Source of the DNA: a virus
Taxonomy: Duplodnaviria > Caudoviricetes
Virus record (IMG/VR): IMGVR_UViG_3300020036_004254
DNA: 64,000 nucleotides
Strand: one strand, 5' to 3'
The first letter of the stretch is position 1. Every line of letters begins with the position of its first letter. The notes under the pieces were generated by a model. The model did not search any database and was not told the DNA's origin. It saw only the letters and a program-made list of their open reading frames with translations. Positions 34,762 through 62,137 of this stretch are shown here, piece by piece. A program made the translations under genes and the position numbers.

Positions 34762-36656
34762 TGACTGACTTGCGCGTAACCGAACTAGATTTCGAGGCGA
34801 TTAAAACCAATCTTAAGAATTTCATGAGGGCACAGTCTGAGTTTTCAGACTATGATTTTGACGGGTCGGCGTTGAATGCGTTGTTAGATGTGTTGGCGTA
34901 CAACACCCACTATAACGCGATGTTGGCGCATTTGATGTCAAATGAAATGTTTATTGACACCGCTATCAAACGGTCGTCTGTCGTGTCTATCGCTAAAACA
35001 ATGGGGTACATCCCGCGTTCGTATTCGGCGGCAAGAGCTACAATCTCGTTAACCGTTCCTACAGACAGTCCACTTCCGATGACCGTGGACACCTCAACCA
35101 AATTCACCACCACCAAAAACGGAACTCCTTATACATTCAATGTTGAGGAATCGGTCACCGTCACCCCGGAAGCGATTAGCGGGGGATATCAGGCGGTGTT
35201 TCCAGAGGTGTTGTTGGTTGAAGGTACTCGTCTCCAAAATGCATTCACCGTGACGGCAGATAACCGACAGGGACCGTTTGTCATCCCCGTTGAAAATATT
35301 GATTTGTCAACCATCCGGGTTGTGGTGAAAACCTCTGCAAACGTGGAAGAATACACCGTGTTTACACGGTCGTTGACGGTTGTAGACGTTTCAGACACCA
35401 GTACCGTGTTTTGGGTAGAAGAGAATGCAGACGGGAAGTTTCAATTGATTTTTGGTGACGATGTCATTGGTGCCACGCTGGATGTGGGTAATATTGTCAC
35501 CGTGTACTATGTGGCGTGTAACGGGAGTACACCAAACGGGGTTCGCACGTTTACTCTTTCTGGTACAGTTGGCGGAACCTCTAATGTCACGATTACCACG
35601 GTTGATGTGGCTGGGGCTGGTGCGGAAAAAGAAACCATCGATAGCATTCGGTTTAATGCACCCAAGTTCAACAACACCAGAAATCGTGCGGTGACTGCTC
35701 AAGATTACAAGTCGTTGATTCTTGCAGATTCGAATATCAACTTCAAGGCCAATTCTATTTCCGTGTGGGGTGGAGAAGAAAACATCCCCCCGGTGTACGG
35801 AAAGGTCTTTATCACTATCGACCCAACAGATTCGTATCTTATCACGGATTCTGACAAAAAGTATATCATTGACCGAATTTTGCGTCCTCGAAGTGTCATG
35901 TCTATCCAACATGAGTTTGTAGACCCTGAGTTTATCTATTTGGGGTTTGATGTGGTCATTTCCTACAATGAAAACATCACCAACTTGTCTTCGACTGAGT
36001 TGACCGCGTTGGCACACGACCGTATCACAGAGTTCTTTTCTGAGAATCTCTCTACACTAGACCGAACCTTTTTCTTCTCACAGCTTGTTGATGCTATCAC
36101 CACCATCAACCCTGCCATTTTGGGTGTGTTGGTGAATATGCGTATTCAGAATCGTATTACAAAGCTGGCATCGTTTAACACAACCAAGAACCTTCGCTTT
36201 TTGGCTTCGTTAGAACCCGATAGCATTTCTAGTACAGTGTTTGTTTCTTTGGTAAACGGAATTTCGTACAACGCCTATATTAAAGATTTTCACGATGGCG
36301 TTATCAAAGACCCCACTGGGACTGGAACATTGAAGTTGTTGGAGGCGGACACCAACACCGTATTGGTGTCTGCATTGGGCACCGTTGACTACAAAACAGG
36401 CATTCTGTCCTTCTCAGATTTGAACATTTCTTCCTATCTGGGGAACATCACGGATGTTCGAATCAACGCCGTCCCACAGAGCCTTTCCAAGAACATTTCC
36501 CCCAGTGTGATTTCTGCAACCGAACAATCCACTAGCGCGGTGTTTCCGGCACCAGCAAAAAACATCATCATTGAGCTAGATGACAGCGAAATCAATACTG
36601 CTATCAAGCTAAACCCCGGGTTGAACATTACCACCATTCCGTTTAGCGAACTCTAA
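34761..36656 (+). CDS. 6: baseplate wedge gp6
   Basis: LDFE.IK.NL, DYDF.GS, LAYNTHY, RSSVVS.AK, RAVT..DY, WGGE, YGKVFI. Confidence 0.93.
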
Positions 36657-39223
36657 TGTCTTCTTTCCGTCATAAGCTTCATCATTTTATTTCAGGACAA
36701 ATCCCGGATTACATCCGGGAGAACTATCCTATATTCGTATCTTTCGTTCAAGCCTACTACCTATTTCTTGAAGAAACGGGTGAGGCGAATGATGTGTTGC
36801 TGAACACGGATACGTGGATGGATATTGACCAAACGCTTGATGACTTCATTCCGCTGTTCCAAAAGCAGTACATGGGAAACATTCCCCAGAGTGCCATTGT
36901 TGACATCAAACGTCTTATTAAGTTTGTCAACGAATTTTACGAGGCCAAGGGGTCGGAAAACGGAACCGAATTGTTCTTCCGATTTATGTTTAATGATACC
37001 GCCAGTGTCAAATATCCGGGAGATAACCGTTTGGTGGCATCTGGTGGAAACTGGAAGCAACGAAAAAGCATCAAACTAGATACCGGAACGATTTCCACTG
37101 ACAACAACCCCTTCTTGATGAAGGGGCGAAAGATTTTTGTTGAGTATACCCTGTACGAAAATGGGGTGGGAAATGTTGTGTATCGGGTTCCCGTATCATG
37201 CCTTGATGTGGTTAAACTATCAGCACCAAACATTTATCGGTTGGATGTAGAACTATCAGATTCGGTCGTCTTCCCAGACACCGCGATTAGCACACACCCC
37301 TCCAACGAAGCGGAGACGGTGTACGACAGTCATTTGTATGTTTTGATGAATTTGACTTCTGACGAGGACATGCAGTTGGGTGTTGCCCCATCATGGAGTG
37401 CCTGTGGCACGTTGTCCAAGCAATTGGTAAGCATTAAGCGCATTGTAACTGGCGGAACAAACTTTCGTGTCGGTGAATCGTTTTATGTAAATGAAGGTGG
37501 AACCTCTGGTGAATATTTCGAGTTTGATGTGGATGTCCCGAGTGAATGGTATACATTAAACATTAGTGGAACCGACGCATATGTGTCTCCGTCACTCATG
37601 TTAAACAACGCCATCGTTCGTGTTCGGAATATTATTTCTGAGAATCTGGGTCCGTATTTTGCCCAGAACTACACGGTGGATTTGTTTGAAACATATACCA
37701 CCGAATCCAGAGATAGGCAAATTCGCCATCTTCAAATTGTTACTACAGGTCAGCGTTTTTCGGTTCGAGAATATTTCAACCCGAGATACTTCATTTCGTA
37801 TAGCGACCCGCTTGATGATTATTTGGCGGAATCAACCCCATCGTACAACTCGTATACATTTCCGATTGAGCTATTGGAAGATTCTGTTCCGGTCAGCGAA
37901 GTGAGTTTTGATTTTTACGCAAAAGATGCGGGTGAAATGGCCACGGTCATTTTTAACACGGGTTATGTGTATGTCGAACCCGGGCGTTATGTAGATAGCG
38001 TCAGTTTGTTGTCAGAAATGAATAAGTTGCAAGACAATTTCTTGTTTCAACCATATTCCTACACTGTCAAAACCCATCAGGGGTTTGATACGTGGAAAGA
38101 CGCATATACCAAATCAAATCACCCTGCTGGATTTATTCTTTTTGCCAACTTGAACATTGATGAGTTGACACCATTAGATGTTACGGTCGAATCGGTAGAT
38201 GTGGATGAAACGTTTGTTATTGTTAGCGCAACCCCATCTGTCACACCAACCCCGTCCATAACGTTAACACCGTCAGTTACCCCTTCGGTGACGCCGTCGA
38301 TTACACGAACCCCGTCGGTGACAGCTTCAGTTACCCCCACACCAACCCGCACTCCATCGATTACTGTCACCCCTTCGATAACACCAACTGTAACGGTAAC
38401 ACCGACCAGAAACGCTTCATCATCTGTGACGCCGACAGTCACCCCGTCGATTACCCGTACACCTTCGGTCACCCCGTCAATTACCCCATCGATTACCCGT
38501 ACACCTTCGGTCACCCCATCGATTACCGCTTCTACGACCCCAACGGTAACCCCGACGGCGACACGGGCCGCAACAGCTACTCCGTCTGTTACCCCATCGA
38601 TTACCCCAACGGTAACACGTTCGGTGTCGGTCACACCAAGTATTACCCCGTCAATAACCCCATCAGTTACCAGAACACCCTCGGTGACGCCGTCGATTAC
38701 ACGAACCCCGTCGGTGACACCGTCGATTACCCCGACTGTTACACCAACTCGTACTACATCAGCAACCCCTACCCCAACCCCTACCCCAACTGTTACCCCA
38801 ACTCCCACAATCACCACCATCTGTTATGTCACAGGGGATTTACTAACAGGCCCGGGTCAGGCATCATCAATTTTGGCGTGTGCATTGGGTGATACACTTG
38901 ATATTACAGTGTACACCGATGGTGCTTTGTTCTACAGTGATTTCCCGTGTAGTGGTGGGTTGGTCCTTGATGGGTATTACAAGACCGCTTCAAACGGTTG
39001 GATTCAGTACAGCGGTGGCTCTGTTATAAATAGTGGAAGTTGTGCTATCCCGCCAAGCCCATCAGTTACACCGACCCCGACCCCAACCCCTTCAGCGGGT
39101 TGCCCAGAGGTTGGAACTAATATTTGTCAGGGTATTGACTTGTACATTGCCGACGGTGCCTGTGGTTGGTCACAGATTTGCCCAGATAACATCGCTTGCG
39201 GTGGTACACAAAGTTGTTCATAA
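36656..39223 (+). CDS. 7: baseplate wedge gp7-like protein with C-terminal mucin-like TPS tract and Cys-rich tip
   Basis: [37 protein letters not shown]; then roughly 200 aa of TPSV/TPSI repeats. Confidence 0.8.
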
Positions 39224-39257
39224 CGTATAAATATCCCTATATCAACCACAGGCCACA

Positions 39258-41210
39258 ATGAAAAAACGTCCAAGTAGAGCAAGATTGGCAAGAATCGTTC
39301 CGGGTCCACCAGCCCCGGAACGGGTTACCAATGATGTGTTGATTGACGGGGTATGGTATCTGAACCAACCCCTTGCCCCGTCTCATACCCCATCAGTTAC
39401 CCCAACGCCTTCTATATTGATTTCGGTTTCTGTGACCCCGACGGTAACCCCGACGGTATCTGTGACTCCGTCCATCACCCCGTCGATTTCAATTTCTTCG
39501 ACACCATCGGTTACCCCGTCGGTAACTGCATCAGTCACCCCATCTATAACACCTTCTTCGTCGGCCAATGCCACCCCATCGGTGACCCCATCGGTAACAC
39601 CGTCGGTAACTGCGTCTGTGACGCCAAGCGTCACTCCATCTATTACTCGCACGGCCTCCGTGACACCATCGGTAACCCCATCGGTGACTCGTACCGCGTC
39701 GGTGACGCCAAGTGTTACCCCAAGTATCACTCCAAGTATCACTCCAACAATCACACCAAATGCGTCTACTTCTGTAACTCCAACAGTTACACGCACGGCT
39801 TCTGTGACTCCGTCTGTCACACCAACGAGAGACGCTTCGCCATCAGTGACACCAACGGTTACTCCGTCAATCACCTTGACACCGTCGGCTTCTCCTGATT
39901 TGGGCGCACCAGCGTTTAATGAAAGTTTCTTGGTTGCATCAGACACCAATGGGTCACCAGACGGAACAACCGCAAATCCGTTGACTATTACGGTGAAAGA
40001 CCTTCTTGGAAACTTGTTGTCCGGTGAAAGTGTATCCTACGACATTGAAAGAACGTTTGTGGATGCAGACCAAACCACTCTTACTGGCGATTTGCTCGAA
40101 ATTGAAACCACAACAGGTGTGTTGACACTAACGTTGCATATCAAGAACAGCGCGGGCGTCCCGCTCCCGGGTTGGGCAACCAAGGATATCATTTTCTCTG
40201 CAACGGGAACAGGAAATACCTTTACCCCAATCGACAGTATTTCTGACCGCAATGGTGATTATCGTGTTTCGTTCTCATCAACAGAAAATGAAGTGAAGAT
40301 TATCACTGTTTCTGTTAAGAATATTGCTATTACACAGAACTATTCCGTTGTAGTAACCACCCCGGGTGTTGTCACGCCACTCTTTTTCTCGGACTTCTCT
40401 ACAGCAACCGGAACTTCTTCTCTGGCACGTTCGGATAACAGTAAGTGGAACATTGTTGGTGATTTGACTATTATTGCAAACCCCGGAAACATCGGAATGC
40501 CGTCGAACATGGTCAACGTGGCACAAGTTCCGTGGTATCCTGTAGCGGGTGGTGGAGCAACAAACAGAAAGGGTGGTTTGACCGCCCCGTCTCCTGAAGG
40601 ATTGTCGTTGCCAAACCCGGGTGATTTACAATACTATAGATGGTACTATGAAAACGAACAACCCAATGGTACTGTTGACGAACAAACACACCCTGTACAA
40701 GACGGTGCCGCCGCTGGAACCCTGAACTGGGAACTTGCCGTGCGTAACGATGTGGACGGTGGATACTACGGAAACCAAATTCTTTTGAACTCTGCTGTAC
40801 TTGGGAATGTAAGAATCTTTCAATCGCCAAGATTAGATAAATTCAAAACATATCGGTATGAAGTTAAATTGACCGTGATTTCAACAACCGAATTTAAACT
40901 ATCTGTCAGAGTATATGATGAGGCAATAAGCACCATTGTTCCAATTTTGACGGATGCTGATTATGTCCAAACATCGCCGCTTGTTGGTTCACCACCGACT
41001 ATGGAAGAATATTTCGTTTCTCAAAATCATGTATTCTTGAATTTCGATTACGTTGAGGGATTGAACATTGGTGTAAACGATGGTGGTCAGGCTGGTGAAG
41101 AAGGTATTTACGGTCACCAAGGTGGTGTGGCCATTACAAGAAATACCGTATTGAATGAAACAGTTTGGGTGGGTCCATATGGAACAGTAAAGGGGGAAAA
41201 CAATGGCTAG
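39258..41210 (+). CDS. mucin-like stalked virion protein A (N-terminal tag, TPS tract, Ig/invasin-like domains, beta-rich head)
   Basis: late promoter TATAAATA at 39226; [18 protein letters not shown]; TPS repeats. Confidence 0.8.
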
Positions 41211-42606
41211 TCCAGTCCGGTCTACAACAGGTGATGTTGAACTCACATTTGATGCAACATTAGATGCGAGTGGAACAATTGTAACACAAGCATTTGACGC
41301 TGGGTCTGATGCGAATAGACATTTGTTGGCCATTATCACTTATGATGGTGCATCGTCGCATACATTAGGAGACACTTCTTGCGCGTATAACGGTGTTACT
41401 ATGTCCCCGTTAGGAGCATCTTTTGGTTCTGGTCAGTCCAGAACTCGTGTTTTTCAACTTATAAACCCAACCTCTGGCTCAAACGACTTCACTCTAGACC
41501 CAAGCGCGGGTGTTGGGTCAGAAGATGTTGTGATAACTCTTATGTGCAAATCAAATGTTGACCAAACAACTGCATATGAGAACTATGTTACCGCAACAGG
41601 AACAGATTCGTCAAACCCATATACATCAGCAGTGACCATTACATCTAGTGCGACTGATAGATTGGTGGTAACTGGTCATGCGGTACGTGCATCTTCTGTT
41701 ACAGGAGGAACAGCGACAAACTTCACAGAAAGAACAGATAACGTTAACGCCAACATAGGGTTGGTGACAGGCGAAGCGGCTGGCGCATCAAGCGTGGCAA
41801 CCAGTGTGGCGTGGGCAGGTGTTTTCGCAATTGATTATGGGGCATTTGGTATCAGTCTCGTTGGTATTAGCCCCGGGCCAACCATTACTTCAGAACCATC
41901 AAGTGCCGCCGTGGTGTTAAACAATGATACAAGAACCAGCGCAACATTTGTTGCAACGGCGGTTGGTACTGGTGATATCATTGGTCAGTGGCAAAAGGAA
42001 GGGGTAAACATTTCAAACGGCGGAATCTATTCTATCACAGAATCCCCCGCTGGTACGTTTACTTGTATTGTCACCCCAACCGACGCAACATTTGACGGTC
42101 AAACAATTACTTGTGAGTTAACTGACGATACCGGAACTAGAGAAACTGTTGGAGCGATACTCACCATTCTTAACGGACCAGAAGTAAATCCAACGTCGGG
42201 TTCTACTACTGCTGGTGTACACTCTACCGATTTGACGAGTGACGATGAATTGTTAGACGCAGGGGAGTGTTTGTTGATTAGCGGCAGAATTGCGGCAAGT
42301 GTGGTGGCGCGAACCATCACAAACCCCATGTATCCGTCTGTCACGCCTTCGTTGACCGCAACCCCATCGGTAACACCAAGTATTACCCCATCCGTGACGA
42401 GAACACCGTCGATTACCCCATCACTGACAGCAACACCAACTGTAACACCAACCCGTGATGCATCCCCAACACAGACGCCATCGGTGACACCAAGTATTAC
42501 GCCTACCATCACCAGAACACCATCGTTGACACCGAGTATTACCCCGTCAAGAAGCCCGTCAAGAACACCGACACCAACACCAACTCCGTCAACCAGCCGC
42601 CCCTAA
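41203..42606 (+). CDS. virion protein with beta-rich domains, Ig-like domain and C-terminal TPS tract
   Basis: 467 aa Ser/Thr/Gly-rich; PTITSEP...QWQK...ITC Ig pattern. Confidence 0.75.
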
Positions 42607-44040
42607 ATGAAAAAGAGACAATCTAGAGGTTCTATAGGGGGAGGGCGGGGTGGAAATGGTGGAAAACCCATTCTCAACCGTAGCGGAAATGATGTGTTGA
42701 TAGATGGGGTGTGGTATATCAACCAACCACTTGCTCCGTCTCGCACACCGAGCATAACCCCTACGGTCAGCACATCAGTTTCGGCCACCCCATCAGTCAC
42801 CCCATCTGTAACAAGAACTCCTTCTATTACCCCATCTATTTCTCTTAGTGTTACCCCAACGGCAACGCCGTCTGTAACACCAAGCATTACCCCGTCGGCA
42901 ACCCAAACACCCTCGGTGACGCCAAGTGTTACCCCAAGTGTTACCCCAAGTTCATCACAATTTGTCAGTCAGAGTGTGACCCCGAGTGTCACACCCTCCG
43001 TGACACCCAGCGTAACCGCTTCAGTAACACCATCGGTAACACGAACACCGTCTGTTACACCGAGTATTACTCCATCTATCACTAGAAGTGTTTCACCAAC
43101 AACAACGCCTTCTGTAACACCGACAATCACTCCTACCCCAACGAGGAACGCAAGTGTAACCCCAACTCCATCTATTACCCCAACTGTGGGCAGTGGACTT
43201 TGGACACCTGTATTCTTAGCGGATTGGGGAACTAGTACGGGAACTGGGACAACTGCGTTACGAGACGGTACAACATTCGATGCTCTTTCCCCGGCTTCTG
43301 CTGATAACGGTGAAGTCATAGCCGCTCCGGGTGGTTACGGGTGGAACACCGTTAACATTCTTCATCATTATTCAATCAATGATGCCAGAGCCGGATGGTT
43401 GGAGATTCAGAAAAATACATTGGGGGTACAAGCCGAAGGAGAAGTTCGCAACTTCCGATGGGCGCATGTAAACATTCACCCAACCGCCGCAGAAGGGGCA
43501 ACAGATAACTCGCATCATTGTATACAGGACGGATATCCGTCGGGTGCAGGTTCGTTTCAAAATTGGAACATCACAGACGGAACAAACTTTGTTGGAGAAT
43601 GGGAACCGAACTTTCTAATCTCTAACGGGGGTGGTGGACGGTACTATCTAAACTCTGCCGTGACGCCAACCCGTCTTAACAAAGACACGCGGTACACCTT
43701 TGAAGTACAAATTGTTAGAGGTACGACGGGGGCTGGTACGTCCAACGCATTCCGTTTCCGTGCGTGGATTTATGATGAAAATGGGGTGGAAATCTACGGA
43801 CCATCAGACTTTGTGTCCAATTTGTATTCAGGTGAGACTTTGGCCAATGACCGTTGGCACACGTACAACAATCTCAATGGAACTCAACAGTTTAACATTG
43901 GGTGTAACGGTGCGACTGCCACAAGCTATCCTCTCTCGGTTGGGTATTTTGGAGAAGTAGCAATGGTATCCAGTATCTCTGATGGGGATTTGACAGCGGG
44001 TACAGCTATTGGTGTATATGGAACATGTTCCGGAGAATAA
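42607..44040 (+). CDS. mucin-like stalked virion protein B
   Basis: MKKRQSRG...[21 protein letters not shown] tract, head domain paralogous to A and C. Confidence 0.8.
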   Translation: MKKRQSRGSIGGGRGGNGGKPILNRSGNDVLIDGVWYINQPLAPSRTPSITPTVSTSVSATPSVTPSVTRTPSITPSISLSVTPTATPSVTPSITPSATQTPSVTPSVTPSVTPSSSQFVSQSVTPSVTPSVTPSVTASVTPSVTRTPSVTPSITPSITRSVSPTTTPSVTPTITPTPTRNASVTPTPSITPTVGSGLWTPVFLADWGTSTGTGTTALRDGTTFDALSPASADNGEVIAAPGGYGWNTVNILHHYSINDARAGWLEIQKNTLGVQAEGEVRNFRWAHVNIHPTAAEGATDNSHHCIQDGYPSGAGSFQNWNITDGTNFVGEWEPNFLISNGGGGRYYLNSAVTPTRLNKDTRYTFEVQIVRGTTGAGTSNAFRFRAWIYDENGVEIYGPSDFVSNLYSGETLANDRWHTYNNLNGTQQFNIGCNGATATSYPLSVGYFGEVAMVSSISDGDLTAGTAIGVYGTCSGE

Positions 44041-45462
44041 ATGAAAAAAAGACAATCAAGGGGTTCGGTGAATATAGTACGTGGCGGTCCGCCGATTCTT
44101 CAAAGAACTGGCAATGATGTATTGATAGATGGGGTGTGGTATATCAACCAACCCCTTGCTCCGTCTCACACTCCTAGTGTAACCCCGACAACAAGTGCTT
44201 CTGTCTCGGTGACACCGTCTATCACACCCAGTGTAACAGTCACCCCATCAATCACCCCGAGTGTCTCGGTGACGCCGACAGTTACAAGAAGTGTAACCCC
44301 ATCGGTTACGCCGTCAGTAACGGTAAGTGTCACTCCATCAATCACCCCAAGTGTGACCCCAACGGTCACCTCAAGTGTATCTCCATCGGCAAGCCCGGGT
44401 ATATCAAGGACACCATCGGTCACACCTTCAGTAACAGCGAGTGTGACTCCGTCGATTACTCCTTCAATCACCAGAACACCATCGGTCACACCTTCAGTAA
44501 CAGCGAGTGTGACTCCGTCGATTACTCCTTCAATCACCAGAACGCCGTCAGTAACTCCGAGCATTACACCAAGTATAACCCCAACCGCAACGGCAAACGC
44601 ATCGCCGTCTCCAACTCCAACCCCAACCCCATCTACCGGAGCGCAAACGGTACAATTTCAATCGGACTTTGGATTTGCATTGGGAACAAGCACCTCTGCA
44701 AAAGGTGATAATGGAAAATGGGATTTGTTGGGTGGTTCTGGGCAAGAAGTTGTTGCCTCTACAGGGTTGGATTTCCCATCTACGAACGTGTGTAGATTTA
44801 CCGCAAACTATTCAAACAGTGGATTTGCTTTAAACCGTCACACAGGAATGCCAACTATACCCGCTGGGACTACTAGATATTACAGATGGTATGTTCGAAT
44901 GGAGTTTCCTGATGAGTTGGTTGGAAATGGTGACCACCCATGGCAAGATGGTAACGCAGTAGGAAGTTCTAACTGGATGGTTGGTGTGCATTATGGTTCC
45001 GATGTTGGTGGCGCACATGCCAGCGATTGGCAAATAGGTGCTATCATGTTGTTGGATACGGATGGGTTGTTTGATAACGGCCCGTGGTTGTCCAAGAGTG
45101 TTACCTATCGCGTAGAAGTGGCGGTACATAACATTGACGACTCACAATATAACTATAGTCAGCGTGTTTATGCCAGTGACGCCGATGGTGGTGCATTGCT
45201 ATATAGTGCATCTGATTTCCCCGCCGATGCGGGTGGTGGAACTCTTGCAACACGAGGGCCATGGAACTGGGATAACTTGGCATGGTCTGACGGACTTAAC
45301 TGCGGAACTAACGATTTTGAAACCGCTGGAAACGAGTCATGGTGGAATGTTGGTTCCCCGACCTTCCTTTATGGTTATCAAGGATGCTTCCTTGTGCTTG
45401 ATAGAACAGAAAGTATTTCAGCCGGAACATGGGTTGGTCCATACGGGGCTATCGATGCCTAA
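44041..45462 (+). CDS. mucin-like stalked virion protein C
   Basis: MKKRQSRG...[21 protein letters not shown] tract, head domain paralogous to A and B. Confidence 0.8.
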   Translation: MKKRQSRGSVNIVRGGPPILQRTGNDVLIDGVWYINQPLAPSHTPSVTPTTSASVSVTPSITPSVTVTPSITPSVSVTPTVTRSVTPSVTPSVTVSVTPSITPSVTPTVTSSVSPSASPGISRTPSVTPSVTASVTPSITPSITRTPSVTPSVTASVTPSITPSITRTPSVTPSITPSITPTATANASPSPTPTPTPSTGAQTVQFQSDFGFALGTSTSAKGDNGKWDLLGGSGQEVVASTGLDFPSTNVCRFTANYSNSGFALNRHTGMPTIPAGTTRYYRWYVRMEFPDELVGNGDHPWQDGNAVGSSNWMVGVHYGSDVGGAHASDWQIGAIMLLDTDGLFDNGPWLSKSVTYRVEVAVHNIDDSQYNYSQRVYASDADGGALLYSASDFPADAGGGTLATRGPWNWDNLAWSDGLNCGTNDFETAGNESWWNVGSPTFLYGYQGCFLVLDRTESISAGTWVGPYGAIDA

Positions 45463-52715: not shown

Positions 52716-52910
52716 ATGAACGATAACTTTGTACGTGACCCTGCTTCATCGGCTCTTATCAACAACGACATCGTTGGTTTAGAAGCCTATAAGAAAAGAA
52801 AAGAGCAGGGGATGAAATTGGAACGAGTTTCTCGGGAAATGAGTACGCTACAAATAGAATTGGAAGAGATTAAATCTCTTCTTCACAAACTAATCAAAAC
52901 AAAGGAATAA
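52716..52910 (+). CDS. small coiled-coil protein typical downstream of VrlC-like genes
   Basis: VRD..S.ALIN....Y.K...EIKSLL. Confidence 0.8.
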   Translation: MNDNFVRDPASSALINNDIVGLEAYKKRKEQGMKLERVSREMSTLQIELEEIKSLLHKLIKTKE

Positions 52911-52913
52911 CAA

Positions 52914-53576
52914 ATGGCTATCACACCACTTTATACACTTCGAAGCGCGAAAGGAACGCCATTGACAAATGATGAGGTCGATGGTACGTTTCAATACCTC
53001 AAGGACGCCATCGATGCGTTGGAAGAGGGTGTCTTTTCGAACTCTGGTGAACTAGCCGGATTGTTGGGCGACGAAACAGGAAGCGGAAAGGCGGTATTCA
53101 ATACCAATCCGGTATTCGTGACCGGAGTATACACCACCTCTTTGTCTTTTGAAGTTTTCAATACCACCGCCACCACCATTAACGCCTTTGGTGCCGCCAC
53201 CACGATTAATTTTGGTGCGCCGGGATGTACCACCACGTTCCAAGGTGATGTCCGGGCAACTGGTGATTTGGTATCTGCCGCCTCATCTGATATTCGATTG
53301 AAGACCCGTGTGCGTCCGATTGAACATGCTCTTGAGCTTGTGGCGGCTCTCCGTGGTGTCACGTGGGAATGGAGAGAAGAGGTGAAGGATGCAGTCAAGC
53401 AAATGCCCAAGACTGGTCTTATTGCTCAAGAGGTTGAGACGGTATTTCCAGAAGTGGTCACTACACGAGAAGATGGGTTGAAGGCAATTCATTATGACCG
53501 CATCATTGGTTTGTTGGTCGAAGCAATCAAGGAATTGAATGAAAAGGTTGAACGTCTTGAGAACAAGGGTGTATAA
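52914..53576 (+). CDS. short tail fibre protein with intramolecular chaperone (peptidase S74) domain
   Basis: KGTPLTNDEVD N-terminus; SDIRLK...GLIAQEVE.VFPE.V...LVEAIKEL. Confidence 0.85.
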   Translation: MAITPLYTLRSAKGTPLTNDEVDGTFQYLKDAIDALEEGVFSNSGELAGLLGDETGSGKAVFNTNPVFVTGVYTTSLSFEVFNTTATTINAFGAATTINFGAPGCTTTFQGDVRATGDLVSAASSDIRLKTRVRPIEHALELVAALRGVTWEWREEVKDAVKQMPKTGLIAQEVETVFPEVVTTREDGLKAIHYDRIIGLLVEAIKELNEKVERLENKGV

Positions 53577-54173
53577 ATGACACTTCAGGGAAGTGGGCAG
53601 ATTAGCTTAAACGATATTCGGGTGGAAATGGGGGAGTCCGGGGGAAACTATTCTTTAACGGAACTTTCTACTGTCCCCAAACTGAATACCGGGGCGTCCC
53701 CACGCCCTGATGGTGCGGCACCTCATGCGATGTCTGAATTCTATAGTTACAATCATCTGACCAACGCATCACCGACCCCAACACCAACACCGACCCGTAA
53801 TGCGTCTCCGTCAGTCACCCCGACGTTGACCCCAACGGTGACCCCAACGGCAACACGCAATGCGTCTCCGTCAGTCACCCCATCGATTACGCCGTCTATC
53901 ACTCGCAATGCGTCTCCGACCCCGACGCCAACCCCGTCAACATGTTTTGCATTCTTCACGACTACGCTGTACACACAGCCGTCTGGAACAGACTGTAGCG
54001 GAGCATCTGGGGCGTTCACCGCATATCACAACACCTCCCCGATTGAATTTGGTACTAGAATCTACAGTGCATCTGGGTGTACGTCTCCCATCGATGGTCG
54101 CTTCACCGATTCTAGCCGAATCTACACATTGGTGACTGGTACGGTGACAAACATTGAGGATTGCGTTGCTTAA
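53577..54173 (+). CDS. fibre-tip/adhesin-like protein with TPS tract
   Basis: MTLQGSGQISLNDIR.E...MSEFY N-terminus, TPS tract, Cys-bracketed C-terminal domain. Confidence 0.7.
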   Translation: MTLQGSGQISLNDIRVEMGESGGNYSLTELSTVPKLNTGASPRPDGAAPHAMSEFYSYNHLTNASPTPTPTPTRNASPSVTPTLTPTVTPTATRNASPSVTPSITPSITRNASPTPTPTPSTCFAFFTTTLYTQPSGTDCSGASGAFTAYHNTSPIEFGTRIYSASGCTSPIDGRFTDSSRIYTLVTGTVTNIEDCVA

Positions 54174-54181
54174 TTTGAGTG

Positions 54182-54189
54182 TATAAATA
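54182..54189 (+). promoter_or_regulatory. T4-type late promoter for glycosylation operon
   Basis: TATAAATA 38 nt upstream of GTG 54227. Confidence 0.75.
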
Positions 54190-54226
54190 GAACCAGTCGG
54201 ATGACAACACACCTGAGGAGTTTCTA

Positions 54227-55477
54227 GTGAAAGATTTAATCTATGTGCAAATTGCGGCGTACCGTGACCCTGAGTTATTGAAAACGGTTCGTGAATGTTT
54301 TAACTTGGCAAAACACCCAGAGAAAATTCAAATGTGTATTGCATGGCAACATGCACAAGAAGACACATGGGACACGTTAGCGGAGTTTCAAGACCACCCT
54401 CAAGTTACCATCATTGACATAGATTACAAAGACGCTCGTGGGGTGTGTTGGGCAAGACACAAGCTCAATAAAGAGTATCGTGGTCAAAAATACACCCTTC
54501 AGTTAGATTCTCATCACCGATTTACGCAAGATTGGGATGCCGAACTCAAGAAAATGTTTAAGGGGTTGGTGAAACAGGGTTTCAAGAAGCCTCTGATTAC
54601 CGCATATCTTCCCAGCTACGACCCAAACAACGACCCGGGTAGTCGAATCACCACCCCGTGGAATACGGACTTTGACCGTTTTTCCCCAGACGGAAACGTC
54701 CATTTTCAACCCAACAGCATCGATGACTGGCGCGACCGCCCACATCCAATCCCAGCACGATTTGTGTCTGGGCACTTTCTGTTTACATTGGGTAAGTTTT
54801 GTAAGGAAGTAGAGTATGATTCATCATATTATTTCCATGGGGAAGAAATCAACTTGTCTGTCCGTGCGTACCTTGCGGGATATGACCTGTTTCACCCCAA
54901 TAAAGTCATCATGTGGCACGAATACACTCGTTCCAACAAAAAGAAGCATTGGGACGACCACACGAACTGGAATGCGTTAAACGATTTCTCCCACGCGCAC
55001 AATCGACAAATGTTGGGTATCGATGGCGTGGTCCAGCCCCGAGTGACGGGAAATGCGCGTCAACTAGAAGATTATGAACGGTATGCGGGTCTTCAGTTCA
55101 GCACACGACGAGTTCACACCAAAACGATTGAAAAGAAGTATCCGCCTATTTGTACGGCAGACGACCCAACCTTTGAAGAAGGTCTTCGAAGCTTCCGACG
55201 GTACTGTATCGATTTGTACAAGGGAGCGTTTACTGAAACGGACTATACGGTGTGGGTATTGGCATTTAAGGACGCCGACGGAAACGAAATCTACCGAGAA
55301 GACGTTAGCCCAGACGAAATCAAACGGTTGATGGCAGAGATTCCTGATGATAAGTTTGTTCATGTATGGAGAACTTTTTTCTCGTCCGCGTTGCCAACTA
55401 AATACATTGTGTGGCCAGCCACCACCTCAAAGGGTTGGTTGCCTATTATTGAAGGTTCATTAGTGATTGACAAGTGA
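54227..55477 (+). CDS. GT60-like polypeptide N-acetylglucosaminyltransferase 1
   Basis: IYVQIAAYRDPEL, ARGVCWAR, LQLDSHHRF.QDWD (DxH), ITAYLP, F.SGHF.F, YFHGEEI..SVR, WH. Confidence 0.85.
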   Translation: MKDLIYVQIAAYRDPELLKTVRECFNLAKHPEKIQMCIAWQHAQEDTWDTLAEFQDHPQVTIIDIDYKDARGVCWARHKLNKEYRGQKYTLQLDSHHRFTQDWDAELKKMFKGLVKQGFKKPLITAYLPSYDPNNDPGSRITTPWNTDFDRFSPDGNVHFQPNSIDDWRDRPHPIPARFVSGHFLFTLGKFCKEVEYDSSYYFHGEEINLSVRAYLAGYDLFHPNKVIMWHEYTRSNKKKHWDDHTNWNALNDFSHAHNRQMLGIDGVVQPRVTGNARQLEDYERYAGLQFSTRRVHTKTIEKKYPPICTADDPTFEEGLRSFRRYCIDLYKGAFTETDYTVWVLAFKDADGNEIYREDVSPDEIKRLMAEIPDDKFVHVWRTFFSSALPTKYIVWPATTSKGWLPIIEGSLVIDK

Positions 55478-55484
55478 GGTTGTT

Positions 55485-56741
55485 ATGAAGAAAAAGACCA
55501 TTTTCATCCATCTTCCGGCGTACCGTGACCCGGAACTTATTCCAACCATTAAAGATGCGTTGGCCAAAGCGAAGCACCCAAAGAACCTTCGGTTTGGAAT
55601 TTGTCATCAGTATAACCCAGAAGACACATTCGATGACTTGTCAGAGTTTGAAAATGACAAGCGATTCAAGATTGACAAAATCTTGTATACCAATGCCAAG
55701 GGGTTGCCCTATGCCCGTCAGCGTATCAATGATATGATTACTGACGAGACATACATTTTGCAGTTGGATTCACACCACCGATTTGCAGAAAACTGGGACG
55801 AGACACTTATCAACATGCACTCCAAGTTGGAGAAAGAGGGGTTCAAGCCCATTCTCACGGGGTATCTGCCGTTGTACGACCCGTTCAACGACCCCGCAGG
55901 TCGTAGCATGGACCCGTGGCTTCAGCATTTTGTGTGTTTCTATCCTCACGGCACCATTTTCATCCGTCCCAGCGGCATTCCAGATTGGAAGAATCTCAAA
56001 GGCCCTGTGCGGTCCAGATTCCTCTCTGGACACTTCTGTTTTGCCAGAACCGAATGGGCCAAGACAATCAAACACGACCCGGATATCTATTTCAGCGGCG
56101 AAGAAATCAACCTCACGGTTCGTTCCTTCACCCATGGATATGACATGTTTCACCCCCATGTGCTGGTCATCTGGCACTCTACCATGCGCGAAGAACGGGC
56201 TGGGAAACTGTCATGGGATGACGAGCATAAGCGTGGAGTGGACACCAACGCGCACCAGACACGAGGTCGTGCGAAAATTCGTCAGTTGTTCCGCACCGAG
56301 GATAACGGGTTTGATTTGACTGGGTATGACATCGGAACGGAGCGAACTATTCGGGACTACGAAGAGTACGCAGGGTTTGATTTCAAACGTCGGGCCGTTC
56401 AGAAATACACCTTGGATTACAAGTATCCGCCAAACCCCAAGGTGGATGATTGGGAAGCGAGCCTATGCACATCCTTCTATAACCTAATCTCGTTTGACAA
56501 GACCAATTTCAAACTGAAGGATTACGAGTACATGGTCTGTGCCTATGATGACGAAAACGGAAACAACATCCAGCGACAAGATTTTCAGAAACATGAAATT
56601 GAGAAGTTCATGGCACAGCCCGGAAACTGGGTACATTTTGAACGTCATTTTCTCACCGAGAAAAAGCCCTACAAATGGGTTATCTGGGCGTATAGCAAAT
56701 CACAAGGCTGGGCCGAACGTTTGGAACACATCATCCAATGA
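55485..56741 (+). CDS. GT60-like polypeptide N-acetylglucosaminyltransferase 2
   Basis: IFIHLPAYRDPEL, AKGLPYAR, LQLDSHHRF.ENWD, FLSGHF.F, YFSGEEI..TVR.FTHGYD, WH. Confidence 0.85.
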   Translation: MKKKTIFIHLPAYRDPELIPTIKDALAKAKHPKNLRFGICHQYNPEDTFDDLSEFENDKRFKIDKILYTNAKGLPYARQRINDMITDETYILQLDSHHRFAENWDETLINMHSKLEKEGFKPILTGYLPLYDPFNDPAGRSMDPWLQHFVCFYPHGTIFIRPSGIPDWKNLKGPVRSRFLSGHFCFARTEWAKTIKHDPDIYFSGEEINLTVRSFTHGYDMFHPHVLVIWHSTMREERAGKLSWDDEHKRGVDTNAHQTRGRAKIRQLFRTEDNGFDLTGYDIGTERTIRDYEEYAGFDFKRRAVQKYTLDYKYPPNPKVDDWEASLCTSFYNLISFDKTNFKLKDYEYMVCAYDDENGNNIQRQDFQKHEIEKFMAQPGNWVHFERHFLTEKKPYKWVIWAYSKSQGWAERLEHIIQ

Positions 56742-57415: not shown

Positions 57416-59011
57416 ATGAAAAGCGAATTGTTTCGGGTATTGCAACCCCAGAATATCTTCCAAGAAAAGAAGCGGTTGGGTCCAACACAGGACGGTGGGT
57501 ATGTCATGCCAGTTTCGGTGTTGAATACCTGTGATGCGCTCTTCACCTATGGCGTTGGTGGAGAAACTCGTTATGAAGAAGAGTTTTCTCGGGATTACCA
57601 GAAGCCTGTCTTCATGTTTGACCACACCATTCCTTCTATCCCACATCTGTGTACGATTGACCCCAATGTTAAGTTTAAGAAAGAGGGTCTTGGGGCCGAG
57701 GAAAATTGTAAGGATTTTGTCGCTCACCTCCAAGAGTTTCGAAAAGAAGACGGCACTCCGTTTGAAAACGTCTTCCTGAAAATTGACATTGAAGGTGGGG
57801 AGTATGACTATCTGTTGAACGCCGATATCGATGCACTGGCCAAGGTGGTCTGTGGAATCAACTTGGAATTCCACTGGCTTCACGAAGAGCCGCGTCAGGA
57901 AAAGCTTGTTCGCATCATGAATAAGTTGAACACGCACTTCATCATGAACCACATTCACGCCAATAACTGGGTGACCATGTTTCCGTTGGAAGGCCGAATG
58001 CTTCCTATTGTGTTGGAAATGTCCTTTATCCATAGAAAGTTGGTCGAGAGGTCAGAACCAGAACTTCGTCAATTTCCCGTCGCAGGGCTTGACTGGCCCA
58101 ACCGCCCGGACGCGCCAGACCACGAACTCACATTTCTTAATTGGTTGCCACGACCCAATCAGAAGATTTACATTTCTTTGACCACGGTCCCGGCGCGGTT
58201 AGGAGATTGGGCGCAGGCCAAGCAAAATCTTGACTCGTTGCTCAACCAAAACACCACGGTGGAATATACGGTGTTGTTAAATCTTCCGCTTCGGTATTGT
58301 ATCACGGGAGAAGAATATATCATTTCAGACGAGTTGAAAGCCTATGCCGACGCCAACCCCAAACTGGTCATCAATCGGTTGTTGGTGGACAGAGGCCCTG
58401 TTGCAAAGATTGACGGGTTTTTGAGTGTCTCGACTAACCCAGAGGATATTATCGTGGTGTGCGATGATGACCATGTGTATCACGAGGATATGTTGGAATA
58501 TCATCTGAAGAAGCTACTCCAATATCCCAATGCGGCCACCGCATTTCGTGGTGATTTTATTGTTGAGAAGCGGGAATGGGTGGAGCCGGATGGTTCACGA
58601 AAGTACATGCTTCGCCCCACCCATTTGTATTTCCCTCCAAAAGAAGACCGTCAGTTATTGATTCCGGGTCACTGGCATTCTGTTGCCTATCGGAGAAAGT
58701 TCTTTGCCGATGATTTTGAAGCCGTGACCACCGGGATAGCAATCAATGACGACATCGCGGTGGGATACTACCTGAAGCGGCGTCAGATTCATATCATGTG
58801 TATTTCGTGGGACAAAGAAACCGATTGGCGTCCTGCCAATGACAACGGTCGGGCCGCATCAACCTTCCCAATTGTTCGCACGTTGCCAAGTTCCGGAACC
58901 AGTGGGTTCCACGCACACCGGGAAAAAAGCAAGGACCACGTTGGAGAAATCGACAACACACTCGTCAAACCAGAAATTGAAGACGGCCACTTTAAGATTT
59001 ATTCGGAGTAA
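57416..59011 (+). CDS. FkbM-like methyltransferase fused to GT-A glycosyltransferase
   Basis: RLG..QDGGY, LKIDIEGGEY, EFH, H.H.NN; C-terminal ISLTTVPARL...GP..K...CDDD. Confidence 0.8.
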   Translation: MKSELFRVLQPQNIFQEKKRLGPTQDGGYVMPVSVLNTCDALFTYGVGGETRYEEEFSRDYQKPVFMFDHTIPSIPHLCTIDPNVKFKKEGLGAEENCKDFVAHLQEFRKEDGTPFENVFLKIDIEGGEYDYLLNADIDALAKVVCGINLEFHWLHEEPRQEKLVRIMNKLNTHFIMNHIHANNWVTMFPLEGRMLPIVLEMSFIHRKLVERSEPELRQFPVAGLDWPNRPDAPDHELTFLNWLPRPNQKIYISLTTVPARLGDWAQAKQNLDSLLNQNTTVEYTVLLNLPLRYCITGEEYIISDELKAYADANPKLVINRLLVDRGPVAKIDGFLSVSTNPEDIIVVCDDDHVYHEDMLEYHLKKLLQYPNAATAFRGDFIVEKREWVEPDGSRKYMLRPTHLYFPPKEDRQLLIPGHWHSVAYRRKFFADDFEAVTTGIAINDDIAVGYYLKRRQIHIMCISWDKETDWRPANDNGRAASTFPIVRTLPSSGTSGFHAHREKSKDHVGEIDNTLVKPEIEDGHFKIYSE

Positions 59012-59012: not shown

Positions 59013-59861
59013 ATGCCACCGATTATTGTAACACTCACCACGGTTCCCGAGCGATTCACCGGAATGTACGGTGACAACGAGCTTGGTATGAAATCAAATA
59101 TTGACTCGTTGTTGAATCAAGAGTTTGACAGGGACTATGAAATCCACCTAAATATCCCTGATGTCATGAAGTACACCGGGGAAGCCTATATCATCCCAGA
59201 GTGGTTGTTAGAGCGGGAGCGGGACAACCCAACCAAGTTGAAGTTGTTTCGTGGGGTAGAAGACATGGGTCCAATCACCAAGATGTATCATACCGTGATG
59301 CGGACCACAGACCCGGATGCCATTATCATTGTTTGCGACGATGATTTGGTCTATCACCCTAAGATGGTGGCGGAACAGGTCAAGAACCAAGAAACCTACA
59401 CCAACACCGTATGCGGATATGACGGCATTCGCATGGAAGACCCTTATTCACTTACTGACCCACCGGATATCAGAACCCATTTTGTGGTGTCGGTATTCAA
59501 GGATGTATATGTTAACTATCTCCAACACTACAAGACCGTTTCGTACCGTCGGCACTTTTTCGACGCCTCGTTCCCCGAGTTCATTGCAGAATACTGCAAT
59601 GCCGACACCGCCACGGGATGGAATGATGATATCACTATTGGGGCGTACCTTGGAAAAATGGGCATTCAGAAAATGGTTCGGTGTTATGAGGATGAAGAGC
59701 AGTTGTTAACGATTGAGCAATGGCAAGAAAAGGGTGGAGTCTTGACTTTTCCTGTAGTACGGCACATTGCACGAGGTGGAGAAGAAGGATGCTTTTTGTA
59801 TCGTCGGGACAATAAGGAACATCAATACTACGAATTTTTGAAAAAAGGATATCTTAAATAA
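59013..59861 (+). CDS. GT-A fold glycosyltransferase
   Basis: VTLTTVPERF, SLLNQ, DMGPITK, IIVCDDDLVY, NDDI. Confidence 0.8.
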   Translation: MPPIIVTLTTVPERFTGMYGDNELGMKSNIDSLLNQEFDRDYEIHLNIPDVMKYTGEAYIIPEWLLERERDNPTKLKLFRGVEDMGPITKMYHTVMRTTDPDAIIIVCDDDLVYHPKMVAEQVKNQETYTNTVCGYDGIRMEDPYSLTDPPDIRTHFVVSVFKDVYVNYLQHYKTVSYRRHFFDASFPEFIAEYCNADTATGWNDDITIGAYLGKMGIQKMVRCYEDEEQLLTIEQWQEKGGVLTFPVVRHIARGGEEGCFLYRRDNKEHQYYEFLKKGYLK

Positions 59862-62137
59862 TGCCATTTTCCACACCGATTTTTAAGGAAGAAACCGTTG
59901 ACTTTGTGACGGCAAAGTTTCAGCCAACCGACACCGTCTTGGATATTGGGGCTGGGTCAGGAACCTATGCAGACCGTCTTGGACACCATTTCAAGCGCAT
60001 GGATGCGGTCGAAGTCTTTGCGCCATACATCGAAGAATATCATTTGAAGTCCAAATATGCCAAGGTCTTCAACGAAGATGCCACCACCTTCAACTTTGAT
60101 TACTACGATTTGATTATTCTTGGGGATGTGTTGGAACACATTTCAGAAGAGAACGGGGTAGCACTCATTGAACGATTGTACGACAAGTGTCGTGATATGA
60201 TTATTTGCATCCCCTTCAACTCCACACAGGGTGTGCATTTTGACAACGAGGCTGAGATTCATCTTCAACCAACCTTGACCAACGAGTCGTTCCTTGCCAA
60301 GTATAAGGGATTTCGTCCTTTTGCTTTGCGTGACGATTATGGTATCTACATCAAAGACATTCCAGAGAACAGAAAATATTTCATCACCTATGATGAGGTA
60401 TGGAGCGGTGAACGAAAGAATGCCGCCCCGCGTTCTCCTATGGAAGGAACAACCATTGTCACAGGATTTTGGGATATTGGTCGCGTTGGTCGTGATTTGG
60501 AACACTATCTCACCCACCTGAAGAACTTACTCAATCTTGACGCCAAACTGTTTCTCTATTTGCCGTCAAAATTCGAACATTTGGTGTGGGAAAACCCCAA
60601 GCGCACCAGAAAGAACACCTACGTTCGCACATGGGAACTTTCCGATGTCAAGGATTTGATGGCACCATTTTGGGACAAGATTCAAGAAATCCGCACCAGC
60701 GAATCATGGCAGAATAGCACGGGTGAGGGTGGGTGGCTAAAGGGTAGCCCTCAAGCGGTAAACGAGTGGTATAACCCCATTGTCATGTCAAAGATGCCCA
60801 TGCTTCACAATGCCGTGTGTTGGAACCCGTTCAACAGCGAAAACTTCTTGTGGATTGACAGCGGCATCACTCATACCGTGTATGACAAGATGTTGATTGA
60901 TGAAAAGGCTCTTGACAAAATGATTCCCCACTTGGACCCGTTTGTTTTCTTGAGTTATCCCTATGAGACAACCCAAGAGATTCACGGGTTCCCCAAGGAT
61001 AAGATGGATGTCTATGCGGGTGCCCCGGTGCATTATGTGTGTCGTGGTGGATTGTTTGGCGGCACCAAGGCCGCGATTCGAGAGGCCAACACCATGTACT
61101 ACAGTCTGTTGATGGATACCTTGAATGCAGGATACATGGGAACGGAAGAGAGCATTTTCACCCTAATGGCCTATCGCCGTCCAGAAATCTATCGTCGCTA
61201 TGAGTTGGACGAAAACGGTCTTATCGTTAAATACATTTCCGCTCTTCTGGATGGAACGGCGGAACTCGTGGCCATCCCTCAAACCACAAAGAAGTTGGCG
61301 AATATGTACAAGAATGTAGAAAAGAAAAAGACCGATTTGTATATTTTGACGTTCAACTTCCCTGAACAGCTAACCGAAATCTTCAAAAGTTTGGATAGGG
61401 CAGAATGGTTGAAGAAGGCCAATCAGGTGACGGTGATTGACAACTCAAACAAGGTAGAAAGTCAACAGGCCAACGCCGACATCTGTCGTCAATACGGGTC
61501 GCACCATGTCATCACAGGCAAGAACGGTGGAATTTGTGGTGGTCGTATGATTGCCGCGCAAATGTTCGAGGCGTCGGACGCGGACTTCTACATGTTCTTT
61601 GAAGATGATATGTTGTTCTACAACGAAGATGACCATGTTCCGTTCTGTCGAAACGGGTTCCGCACCATGATTCCCAACCTCTTCGAAAAACTCGAAGGGA
61701 TTATGCAGAAAGAAGATTTTGACTTTGTCAAGTTGTCGTTTACGGAAGTCTACATGGACAACCATCTTCAGGTGTCGTGGTACAATGTTCCCCAGTCTGT
61801 GCGAACGGAACAATGGCCGGAATATGACAAACTCCCTGTCCATGGACTTGACCCAAACTGTCCGCGCACGGCATTGGGAACCATTGACAATTACGAAGGA
61901 TTGTGCTATCTTACCGGAGATATTTACTACGCCAACTGGCCGATGATTATGAACAAAGAAGGAAACCGCAAGGTGTTTCTCGAAACAACATGGGCGAACC
62001 CCTATGAACAGACTTGGATGTCGTATGTATTTCAAGAAATGTTGAAGGATAAAATTCGGGGAGCGGTTCTTTTGGCGTCACCTATTCATCACAATAGAAC
62101 ATCACATTATCTACGTGAAGAGCGTCGGGAGAACTAA
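59861..62137 (+). CDS. tri-domain protein: SAM methyltransferase + HtrL/WlaTC-like glycosyltransferase + GT-A domain
   Basis: VLDIGAGSG, GDVLEH; TTIVTGFWDIGR, YN..VMSK, WIDSG, GGLFGG, GTEESIF; VIDNS, N.GI.GGR, FFEDD. Confidence 0.82.
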   Translation: MPFSTPIFKEETVDFVTAKFQPTDTVLDIGAGSGTYADRLGHHFKRMDAVEVFAPYIEEYHLKSKYAKVFNEDATTFNFDYYDLIILGDVLEHISEENGVALIERLYDKCRDMIICIPFNSTQGVHFDNEAEIHLQPTLTNESFLAKYKGFRPFALRDDYGIYIKDIPENRKYFITYDEVWSGERKNAAPRSPMEGTTIVTGFWDIGRVGRDLEHYLTHLKNLLNLDAKLFLYLPSKFEHLVWENPKRTRKNTYVRTWELSDVKDLMAPFWDKIQEIRTSESWQNSTGEGGWLKGSPQAVNEWYNPIVMSKMPMLHNAVCWNPFNSENFLWIDSGITHTVYDKMLIDEKALDKMIPHLDPFVFLSYPYETTQEIHGFPKDKMDVYAGAPVHYVCRGGLFGGTKAAIREANTMYYSLLMDTLNAGYMGTEESIFTLMAYRRPEIYRRYELDENGLIVKYISALLDGTAELVAIPQTTKKLANMYKNVEKKKTDLYILTFNFPEQLTEIFKSLDRAEWLKKANQVTVIDNSNKVESQQANADICRQYGSHHVITGKNGGICGGRMIAAQMFEASDADFYMFFEDDMLFYNEDDHVPFCRNGFRTMIPNLFEKLEGIMQKEDFDFVKLSFTEVYMDNHLQVSWYNVPQSVRTEQWPEYDKLPVHGLDPNCPRTALGTIDNYEGLCYLTGDIYYANWPMIMNKEGNRKVFLETTWANPYEQTWMSYVFQEMLKDKIRGAVLLASPIHHNRTSHYLREERREN

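Follow-up and report, generated by a model that had tools for sequence, protein, structure and literature searches.

We report that a 64,000-nt stretch of DNA from an uncultured T4-like tailed phage (IMG/VR virus record IMGVR_UViG_3300020036_004254; this whole stretch is called the window below) probably encodes a system for mucin-type O-glycosylation of proteins, which would work in the cytoplasm and have the phage's own virion proteins as its targets. The proposed system comprises a pair of glycosyltransferases of family GT60 (GT60a and GT60b, encoded at 54227 and 55485), the accessory glycosyltransferase and methyltransferase genes that follow them in a tight operon, and six proteins of the baseplate/fibre module that carry long tracts rich in threonine, proline and serine. 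Genes are named here by the position at which they start, and their coordinates are collected in Table 1. O-glycosylation of the mucin type is considered a trait of eukaryotes and, to our knowledge, virion glycosylation has been demonstrated in only a few tailed phages. Virus-encoded glycosylation of virions is known as such; the use of GT60 enzymes for it would be a new variant.

The two proteins in which a preliminary description of the window had recognised a GT60 signature were found to belong to that family by profile as well as by fold. Both matched PF11397, which corresponds to CAZy GT60 (PMC6418280), 54227 scoring 220 bits and 55467/55485 scoring 176 bits where the cut-off is 21, and phrog_24687 was matched as well (E 4e-137). 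The characterised GT60 members that reviews name are polypeptide α-N-acetylglucosamine (GlcNAc) transferases, kin of the GT27 polypeptide N-acetylgalactosamine (GalNAc) transferases (PMC8724618, PMC6939170), and the family differs from GT27 by the absence of a ricin-type lectin domain (PMC8724618); Pfam found neither a ricin nor any other lectin family in GT60a or GT60b. Across 32 aligned homologues, residues D94, H96, H97 and R98 (DSHHRF), G205, E206 and E207 (GEE) and H231 (WH) were invariant. This alignment and the fold match together give the enzymes a GT-A domain with a D-x-H metal motif and a downstream histidine, as in GT27.

A sequence search for solved relatives of GT60a returned none. 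Its AlphaFold (AF2) model, with a mean predicted local distance difference test score (pLDDT) of 92.9, consists of a GT-A domain and a small C-terminal α/β domain of ~95 amino acids (aa ~318–411). When this model was compared with the PDB using Foldseek, the top ~49 matches were all polypeptide GalNAc-transferases from animals and Toxoplasma (best E 5e-10), the first different enzyme appearing at rank 50. GT60a is proposed to be the initiating polypeptide O-N-acetylhexosamine (HexNAc) transferase. The tandem pair is kept in the IMG/VR loci L001–L005 and was present in 34 of the 85 loci analysed, L006–L099 being left out of this count. At 38136–40457 of G046, the record of locus L054, a single 897-aa frame contains two PF11397 domains, the tandem pair being fused there.

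The putative acceptors are encoded on the + strand by the six late structural open reading frames (ORFs) that had been singled out beforehand (36656, 39258, 41203, 42607, 44041 and 53577), all of which do contain tracts of (T/S)-P-(S/T)-(V/I) units, 78–210 aa in length. Threonine makes up 25–34% of the tracts, proline 19–23% and serine 13–22% (T+S 42–49%), so that each is a long Ser/Thr-rich stretch with frequent proline of the kind that defines a mucin-type domain. A search of the DNA for three T-P-[S/T]-[V/I] units in a row gave 15 matches in the window and none in 100 shuffles. The units differ in their codons and DNA-level repeats are confined to short stretches, from which it follows that it is mainly the protein sequence of the repeat that is maintained. 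A perfect 66-nt tandem duplication (44410–44543, in the tract of 44041) and a 42-nt duplication of 93% identity (38441–38527) lie inside tracts, the length of which is therefore evidently still changing through local duplication. An R-(N/D)-A-S-P element (TRNASPS, TRDASPS, PNASTS) also recurs within tracts, for instance in those at 53751–53984, 38210–38839, 39366–39911 and 42718–43212, and 53577 contains four N-A-S sequons; the element might be a recognition or priming site in its own right.

The proteins around these tracts vary. The gp7-like wedge protein 36656 has a second, short tract (aa 789–822) and a Cys-rich C-terminus, and its orthologue in the nearest relative of the window, IMG/VR contig L251/L409 (126.8 kb; gp6 84% and GT60a 76% identical), is likewise tract-bearing. 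The stalked proteins 39258, 42607 and 44041 have their N-terminal tag in common, followed by the tract and then by C-terminal heads that have diverged from one another. For the head of stalked protein 3 (44041–45462, aa 200–473) Pfam gave no family; an ESM Atlas feature search of it produced leads only, to DUF6645 and a sialidase-like carbohydrate-binding module (scores 0.93–0.95). In L251 (1–2830), gp8 comes directly after the gp7 homologue, so the four genes of 39258–45462 were either inserted here or lost there. The N-terminal domain of 53577 also precedes tracts in L017, L051, L120, L251 and L252.

The T4 late-promoter consensus TATAAATA was found seven times in the window, always on the + strand, against 0.97 copies expected, and five of the seven lie 30–45 nt upstream of ORF starts. 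One (39226–39233) stands just upstream of 39258. Another, 37 nt ahead of the GTG start of 54227, heads a series of genes starting at 54227, 55485, 56738, 57416, 59013, 59861 and 62139 with gaps of only −4 to +7 nt, which bears out the earlier account of a late promoter followed by a tightly packed operon. The last of these, 62139, abuts the operon and its membership is uncertain. No transmembrane segment or hydrophobic membrane anchor was detected in any operon protein, and all are predicted to be soluble.

If GT60 enzymes modify such tracts, the two should occur together, as the preliminary description had expected, and this proved strongly so in both directions. A tract pattern search yielded at least 118 stretches in IMG/VR; whole records were then searched for PF11397, records with a collagen-like (G-X-Y)x9 pattern serving as controls. 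PF11397 was present in 30 of 113 tract-pattern viral records (13/42, 8/34 and 9/37) and in 1 of 106 controls (0/44, 1/27 and 0/35; Fisher odds ratio 38, p 5.5e-9). Among records of at least 60 kb the figures were 20/37 and 1/21 (p 1.4e-4), and of the first 21 records positive for both, about a dozen had the listed tract no more than 6.5 kb from the GT60 gene. Starting instead from the GT60 relatives, which occur in at least 587 IMG/VR contigs, we found an ORF with a P/T/S tract within 10 kb in 36 of 83 loci, compared with 6 of 118 control loci (p 4e-11). The strict three-unit pattern occurred anywhere in the record in 14 of 82 GT60 records, and (TPxx)x5 in 9 of 27 large ones (one, G184, being spurious because of an in-frame stop) versus none of 23 large controls. 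Since both patterns under-detect variants such as TPTx, SPSx and (TP)n, the fraction of GT60 genomes with tracts is a lower bound. A search with gp6 relatives for a lineage-matched control gave 13 loci, mostly short, the two long ones both carrying GT60 and tracts.

When GT60 proteins were clustered at 75% identity, 20 of the 37 resulting lineages had a tract ORF in the locus, and in 16 it lay on the same strand within 1.5 kb, usually directly upstream, as in the window. These adjacent proteins are mostly non-homologous to one another outside the tract, and at least four different small N-terminal domains were seen among the tract proteins of contigs ascertained by their tracts; what travels with GT60 is therefore the tract and not a particular gene. 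The pairing also extends to bacteria. GT60 relatives were found in the genomes of 184 bacterial species, and of the best 80 bacterial loci, 21 had ORFs with (TP)n or TPxx repeats no further than 10 kb away; ~10 of these directly abut the GT60 match with their start or end.

A megablast search of 45500–56741 found no close DNA relative among GenBank phages, so that no cultured close relative is available. At the protein level, GT60 homologues were found in only four GenBank phages (37–41% identity): XacN1, Xoo-sp13 and the Stenotrophomonas phages CM1 and RAS14. TP[ST][VI] tracts are encoded by ORF372 of XacN1 (27 units) and by genes 331 and 332 of Xoo-sp13 (13 and 19 units), which neighbour tail-sheath genes, and in both phages they belong to the tail module; RAS14 has no tract by the strict pattern. 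XacN1 virions contain at least two Schiff-stained glycoprotein bands, for which its authors proposed the phage glycosyltransferases ORF328 and ORF334, the latter being the GT60 homologue (39% identical), as makers; they did not connect the bands with GT60 or with Thr/Pro tracts (PMC5852040). XacN1 differs from the present phage in being a Rak2-like jumbo phage rather than T4-like (Xoo-sp13 is a jumbo phage too), and in having a single GT60 gene that lies near replication genes, beside a carbamoyltransferase gene and ~36 kb from the tract gene. Literature searches on phage GT60/PF11397, on the glycosylation of virions and on mucin-like proteins of phages yielded no description of the GT60–tract pairing, although one preprint places GT60 among viral auxiliary genes and UniProt applies the automatic name 'Glycosyltransferase, GlcNAc' to proteins of uncultured phages. 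The novelty claimed in the preliminary description thus holds for the pairing, whereas virion glycoproteins made by phage glycosyltransferases had already been proposed for XacN1.

The GT60 family, the ppGalNAc-transferase-like fold, the predicted solubility, the late box and the association with tracts all favour the preliminary claim that the phage O-glycosylates its own tract proteins. A number of points have to be set against it. Glycosylation of the tract proteins is a prediction from sequence, fold and comparative genomics; the glycoprotein bands of XacN1 are known by their Schiff stain; and several of the accessory glycosyltransferase and methyltransferase assignments are borderline in score. 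The effect sizes given above are rough, because the collagen-repeat controls are unmatched for lineage and habitat and most records are fragments, and part of the adjacency could reflect a shared location, since both features belong to structural modules. The association is positive but not obligatory: by the patterns used, no tract was found in the complete GT60-bearing genomes G175, G178, G196 and G229, and PF11397 is absent from the tract-bearing G001 (181 kb, 100% complete).

Such exceptions bear on the main alternative, namely that virion proteins are indeed glycosylated but that the acceptors are the capsid, the tail sheath or the fibre heads, the tracts being plain flexible linkers. We regard this as unlikely for the window, while it may apply in GT60 phages that lack tracts, which by the same patterns account for ~40% of the large GT60-bearing records, four complete genomes included. 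Two loci have large ORFs upstream of GT60 (L001 888–6857, L003 778–3594) with Ser/Thr/Ala-rich repeats (ATSITFTPATASF...) that lack the proline periodicity, and these could represent an alternative type of acceptor. A precedent for other acceptors is found in mycobacteriophages, whose structural proteins are modified by glycosyltransferases that the phages themselves encode; this has been demonstrated experimentally, whereas the system of the window is predicted only. The glycans of mycobacteriophages are reported to be attached C-terminally to capsid and tail-tube subunits (Freeman et al. 2023, as summarised in PMC12619734, where no long mucin-like stalks are named). Against acceptors of this kind in the window stand the ~38-fold enrichment of GT60 in tract-bearing records, the unrelated tract proteins encoded within 1.5 kb and on the same strand in 16 GT60 lineages, the same pairing in bacterial chromosomes, and the fold of GT60a, which is that of enzymes acting on Ser/Thr/Pro-rich mucin repeats.

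A second alternative starts from Gnt1, a hydroxyproline GlcNAc-transferase that belongs to GT60 (PMC6939170): GlcNAc would be added to tract prolines that had first been hydroxylated, as happens in Skp1 or in plant arabinogalactan-type glycomodules. With 19–23% proline in non-contiguous X-P repeats the tracts would suit such a scheme, but Pfam found no 2-oxoglutarate/Fe(II) oxygenase in the operon, and PF13640 was absent from four of the five GT60-plus-tract records searched, three of them complete genomes, so that we consider it improbable. Least credible in our view is that the operon modifies no protein and instead decorates the bases of phage DNA with glycans, or builds or alters host surface polysaccharide: DNA glucosylation and serotype conversion are the roles for which phage glycosyltransferases are chiefly known, viral glycosyltransferases have been reported to hypermodify DNA with glycans (work cited in PMC12619734), HtrL/YibB homologues occur in lipopolysaccharide core clusters and the GT60 gene of XacN1 is not near tail genes, yet no acceptors other than polypeptides are known for the GT60 fold and family (PMC8724618), the operon stands behind a late-promoter box among the structural genes of a lytic T4-like phage, none of its proteins appears membrane-bound, and the specific enrichment with tract proteins would be left unexplained.

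The remaining operon genes encode further candidate enzymes for a protein O-glycosylation system, and the four additional glycosyltransferase domains and three methyltransferase domains counted previously were all recovered, some with borderline scores. The methyltransferase domains are those of 56738, for which Pfam returned no match, and of the N-terminal parts of 57416 and 59861. Two of the glycosyltransferase domains lie in 59861; of the other two, that at the C-terminus of 57416 is at the cut-off and that of 59013 below it. The protein 59013 is paralogous to the C-terminal half of 57416, and L004 3941–4741 matches both. Homologues of 57416 occur in 19 of 83 GT60 loci, and a sequence search gave no solved relative of it. 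In L004 the 56738 homologue is fused to the two-GT-A protein, where it replaces the latter's own methyltransferase domain. An NCBIfam search gave nothing useful.

The two-GT-A protein 59861 is, as judged from sequence, the conserved partner of GT60: a homologue of its core is encoded in 64 of the 83 GT60 loci, with the methyltransferase domain either fused or separately encoded. Pfam recognised Methyltransf_23 (PF13489, 32 bits) at its N-terminus, HtrL_YibB (PF09612, 57 bits) and a further C-terminal domain, while a sequence search against solved structures gave a weak methyltransferase match only. In the AF2 model of residues 190–758 (pLDDT 89.4) two tandem Rossmann-like GT-A domains are present in one chain, as in bifunctional glycan polymerases of the LARGE1/K4CP type. 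The best PDB matches were LARGE1, LH3, Mimivirus R699, the E. coli K4 chondroitin polymerase (K4CP), the Pasteurella heparosan synthase 2 (PmHS2) and COLGALT1, that is, two-GT-A polymerases and collagen glycosyltransferases. The expect values went down to 1e-9, but template modelling (TM) scores were 0.23–0.27 with ~10% identity; the low TM-scores arise because the domain orientations differ, and with such values the likeness to LARGE1 and K4CP is a resemblance only, which leaves polymerase activity as a possibility suggested by the model. LARGE1 builds a repeating disaccharide on a glycan of the mucin domain of dystroglycan. In addition to the orientations, 59861 differs from these enzymes in that its first GT-A domain is of the HtrL_YibB family and that it has an N-terminal methyltransferase. 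It may serve as a bifunctional enzyme that extends or polymerises glycans.

Taking these assignments together, we propose that late in infection the operon would be transcribed from the TATAAATA box at 54182, and that the soluble GT60 pair would use a UDP-HexNAc donor (UDP, uridine diphosphate), most likely UDP-GlcNAc, to place the first sugar on hydroxyl groups of Thr/Ser in the dense (T/S)-P-(S/T)-(V/I) tracts. The gp7-like wedge protein would be one acceptor; others would be the small protein 53577 and the stalked proteins whose genes lie between gp7 and gp8. Chains could then be extended by 59861 and by the two GT2-like domains of 57416 and 59013, and the three S-adenosylmethionine (SAM) methyltransferase domains might modify or cap the sugars. 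Coated in this way, the tracts would form extended, hydrophilic stalks that hold the distal head domains away from the baseplate. Every chemical step here, the identity of the sugars, the acceptor residues and the physical role of the stalks are things that we infer, as are two further elements of the preliminary description, the action of the methyltransferases on the glycan and a stiff, protease-resistant stalk as the product.

A more speculative and rather doubtful extension of this scheme is that the product resembles a proteoglycan: GT60 would prime the tracts, 59861 would polymerise a repeating disaccharide on them, and the methyltransferases would cap the chain ends and so set their length, giving polysaccharide brushes on the baseplate. 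We know of no such virion component in tailed phages. Given the at least 587 GT60 contigs and the presence of the two-GT-A partner in 64 of 83 loci, brushes of this kind would be widespread in environmental phages.

The closest characterised systems are the protist GT60 enzymes (Dictyostelium Gnt1 and the Golgi polypeptide α-GlcNAc-transferase, Trypanosoma cruzi OGNT and Toxoplasma Gnt1), which have the same PF11397 domain with DxH, GEE and WH motifs and no ricin domain, and which initiate chains of the mucin type on domains rich in Ser/Thr (PMC8724618). The phage enzymes appear to be soluble, as Gnt1 is. They differ from the protist ones in being encoded by a bacteriophage and acting, as proposed, in the bacterial cytoplasm, in being tandem paralogues, each with the extra ~95-aa C-terminal α/β domain, and in that their putative acceptors are the phage's own virion proteins. 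The best structural matches are GT27 enzymes (human GalNAc-T1, T2, T4 and T12, Drosophila PGANT9 and Toxoplasma GalNAc-T3), which share the GT-A fold and the D-x-H metal site. GT27 enzymes act on dense Thr/Ser/Pro repeats; they belong to another CAZy family, with which the phage proteins share 12–18% identity, and the phage proteins have neither a signal anchor nor a ricin lectin domain. Among phages, XacN1 comes nearest, combining a GT60 homologue, a tract protein in the tail module and Schiff-positive virion glycoproteins, and it is a cultured phage in which the prediction is directly testable.

If the proposed O-glycosylation of tract proteins is correct, many and diverse environmental phages, together with some bacteria, would operate a version of the mucin pathway in the cytoplasm, using enzymes from the GT60 family of protists. 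This would bear on how fibre and baseplate appendages are constructed, resist proteases and stick to surfaces, on the evolutionary history of GT27 and GT60, and on the possible use of soluble enzymes made in bacteria for adding O-HexNAc to designed Thr/Pro tracts.

Table 1 Features of the window (positions in nt; tracts given as length, residues and nt)
Feature	Position	Strand	Tract	Remarks
GT60a, 416 aa	54227..55477	+		PF11397 GT-A domain and separate C-terminal α/β domain
GT60b, 418 aa	55485..56741	+		PF11397; paralogue, 39% identical to GT60a, same architecture
SAM-methyltransferase-like protein, stand-alone, 224 aa	56738..57412	+		phrog_21658 methyltransferase, E 5.8e-12
FkbM-type methyltransferase (N-terminal) fused to GT2-like GT-A (C-terminal)	57416..59011	+		PF05050 23 bits, PF00535 23.3 bits, both at cut-offs
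GT2-like glycosyltransferase, 282 aa from ATG 59013	59013..59861	+		PF00535 18 bits, below cut-off
Three-domain protein	59861..62137	+		SAM-methyltransferase aa 1–165, two tandem GT-A aa ~195–758; Pfam and fold
217-aa protein, C-terminal Cys motif	62139..62792	+		Weak DUF6171 similarity; kept in L251
TATAAATA box, T4 late-promoter consensus	54182–54189	+		37 nt before GTG start of 54227
gp7-like baseplate wedge protein, 855 aa	36656..39223	+	210 aa; aa 519–728; nt 38210–38839	PF23786 Baseplate_wedge 35 bits; between gp6 (34761) and gp8 (45500)
Stalked protein 1, 650 aa	39258..41210	+	182 aa; aa 37–218; nt 39366–39911	N-terminal tag, tract, Ig-like Big_1 domain, C-terminal head
467-aa protein, C-terminal tract	41203..42606	+	98 aa; aa 370–467; nt 42310–42603	No Pfam family
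Stalked protein 2, 477 aa	42607..44040	+	165 aa; aa 38–202; nt 42718–43212	N-terminal tag, tract, diverged head domain
Stalked protein 3, 473 aa	44041..45462	+	175 aa; aa 35–209; nt 44143–44667	N-terminal tag, tract, diverged head domain
198-aa tract protein	53577..54173	+	78 aa; aa 59–136; nt 53751–53984	Directly upstream of the glycosyltransferase operon
gp32	22947			Upstream of baseplate genes; Pfam
T4 baseplate protein	26213			Upstream of baseplate genes; Pfam T4_baseplate
gp53	30525	+		Pfam Phage_gp53
gp5 with OB and CHAP domains	32404–34347	+		Pfam Gp5_OB
gp25	34363	+		Pfam GPW_gp25
gp6	34761	+		Pfam Gp6-like
gp8	45500	+		Pfam Phage-Gp8
DUF4815 protein, 1838 aa	47197	+		Pfam
Fibre with S74 chaperone domain	52914–53576	+		Pfam; directly precedes 53577

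Pfam analysis of the whole window placed the system within a T4-like structural module on the + strand. The gene order gp53, gp5, gp25, gp6, gp7, gp8, with gp32 nearby, is that of a T4-like (Straboviridae-type) myovirus, and the TATAAATA boxes fit this assignment too. The gp5-like baseplate hub protein (32404–34347) has a C-terminal CHAP peptidase domain, and Pfam found no lysozyme domain in it.

Outside this module, the first ~14 kb of the window may be an early or hyperplastic region: positions 1–14000 have a GC content of 52–57%, against 43–48% in most of the rest, and contain small ORFs alone, with a tRNA-Lys gene (2648–2721) and an odd tRNA-like prediction (3335–3405). A permuted transfer-messenger RNA (tmRNA) is encoded on the + strand at 20391–20625 (Rfam RF04321, 89.5 bits, the gathering score being 47); ARAGORN places it at 20361–20716 with the tag peptide ENNNYSTLLLSGALQAA. 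Between 16364 and 18287 a gene of the IMPDH/GMP-reductase family (189 bits) precedes a GIY-YIG/NUMOD3 homing-endonuclease-like gene, which has a TATAAATA box of its own at 17659.

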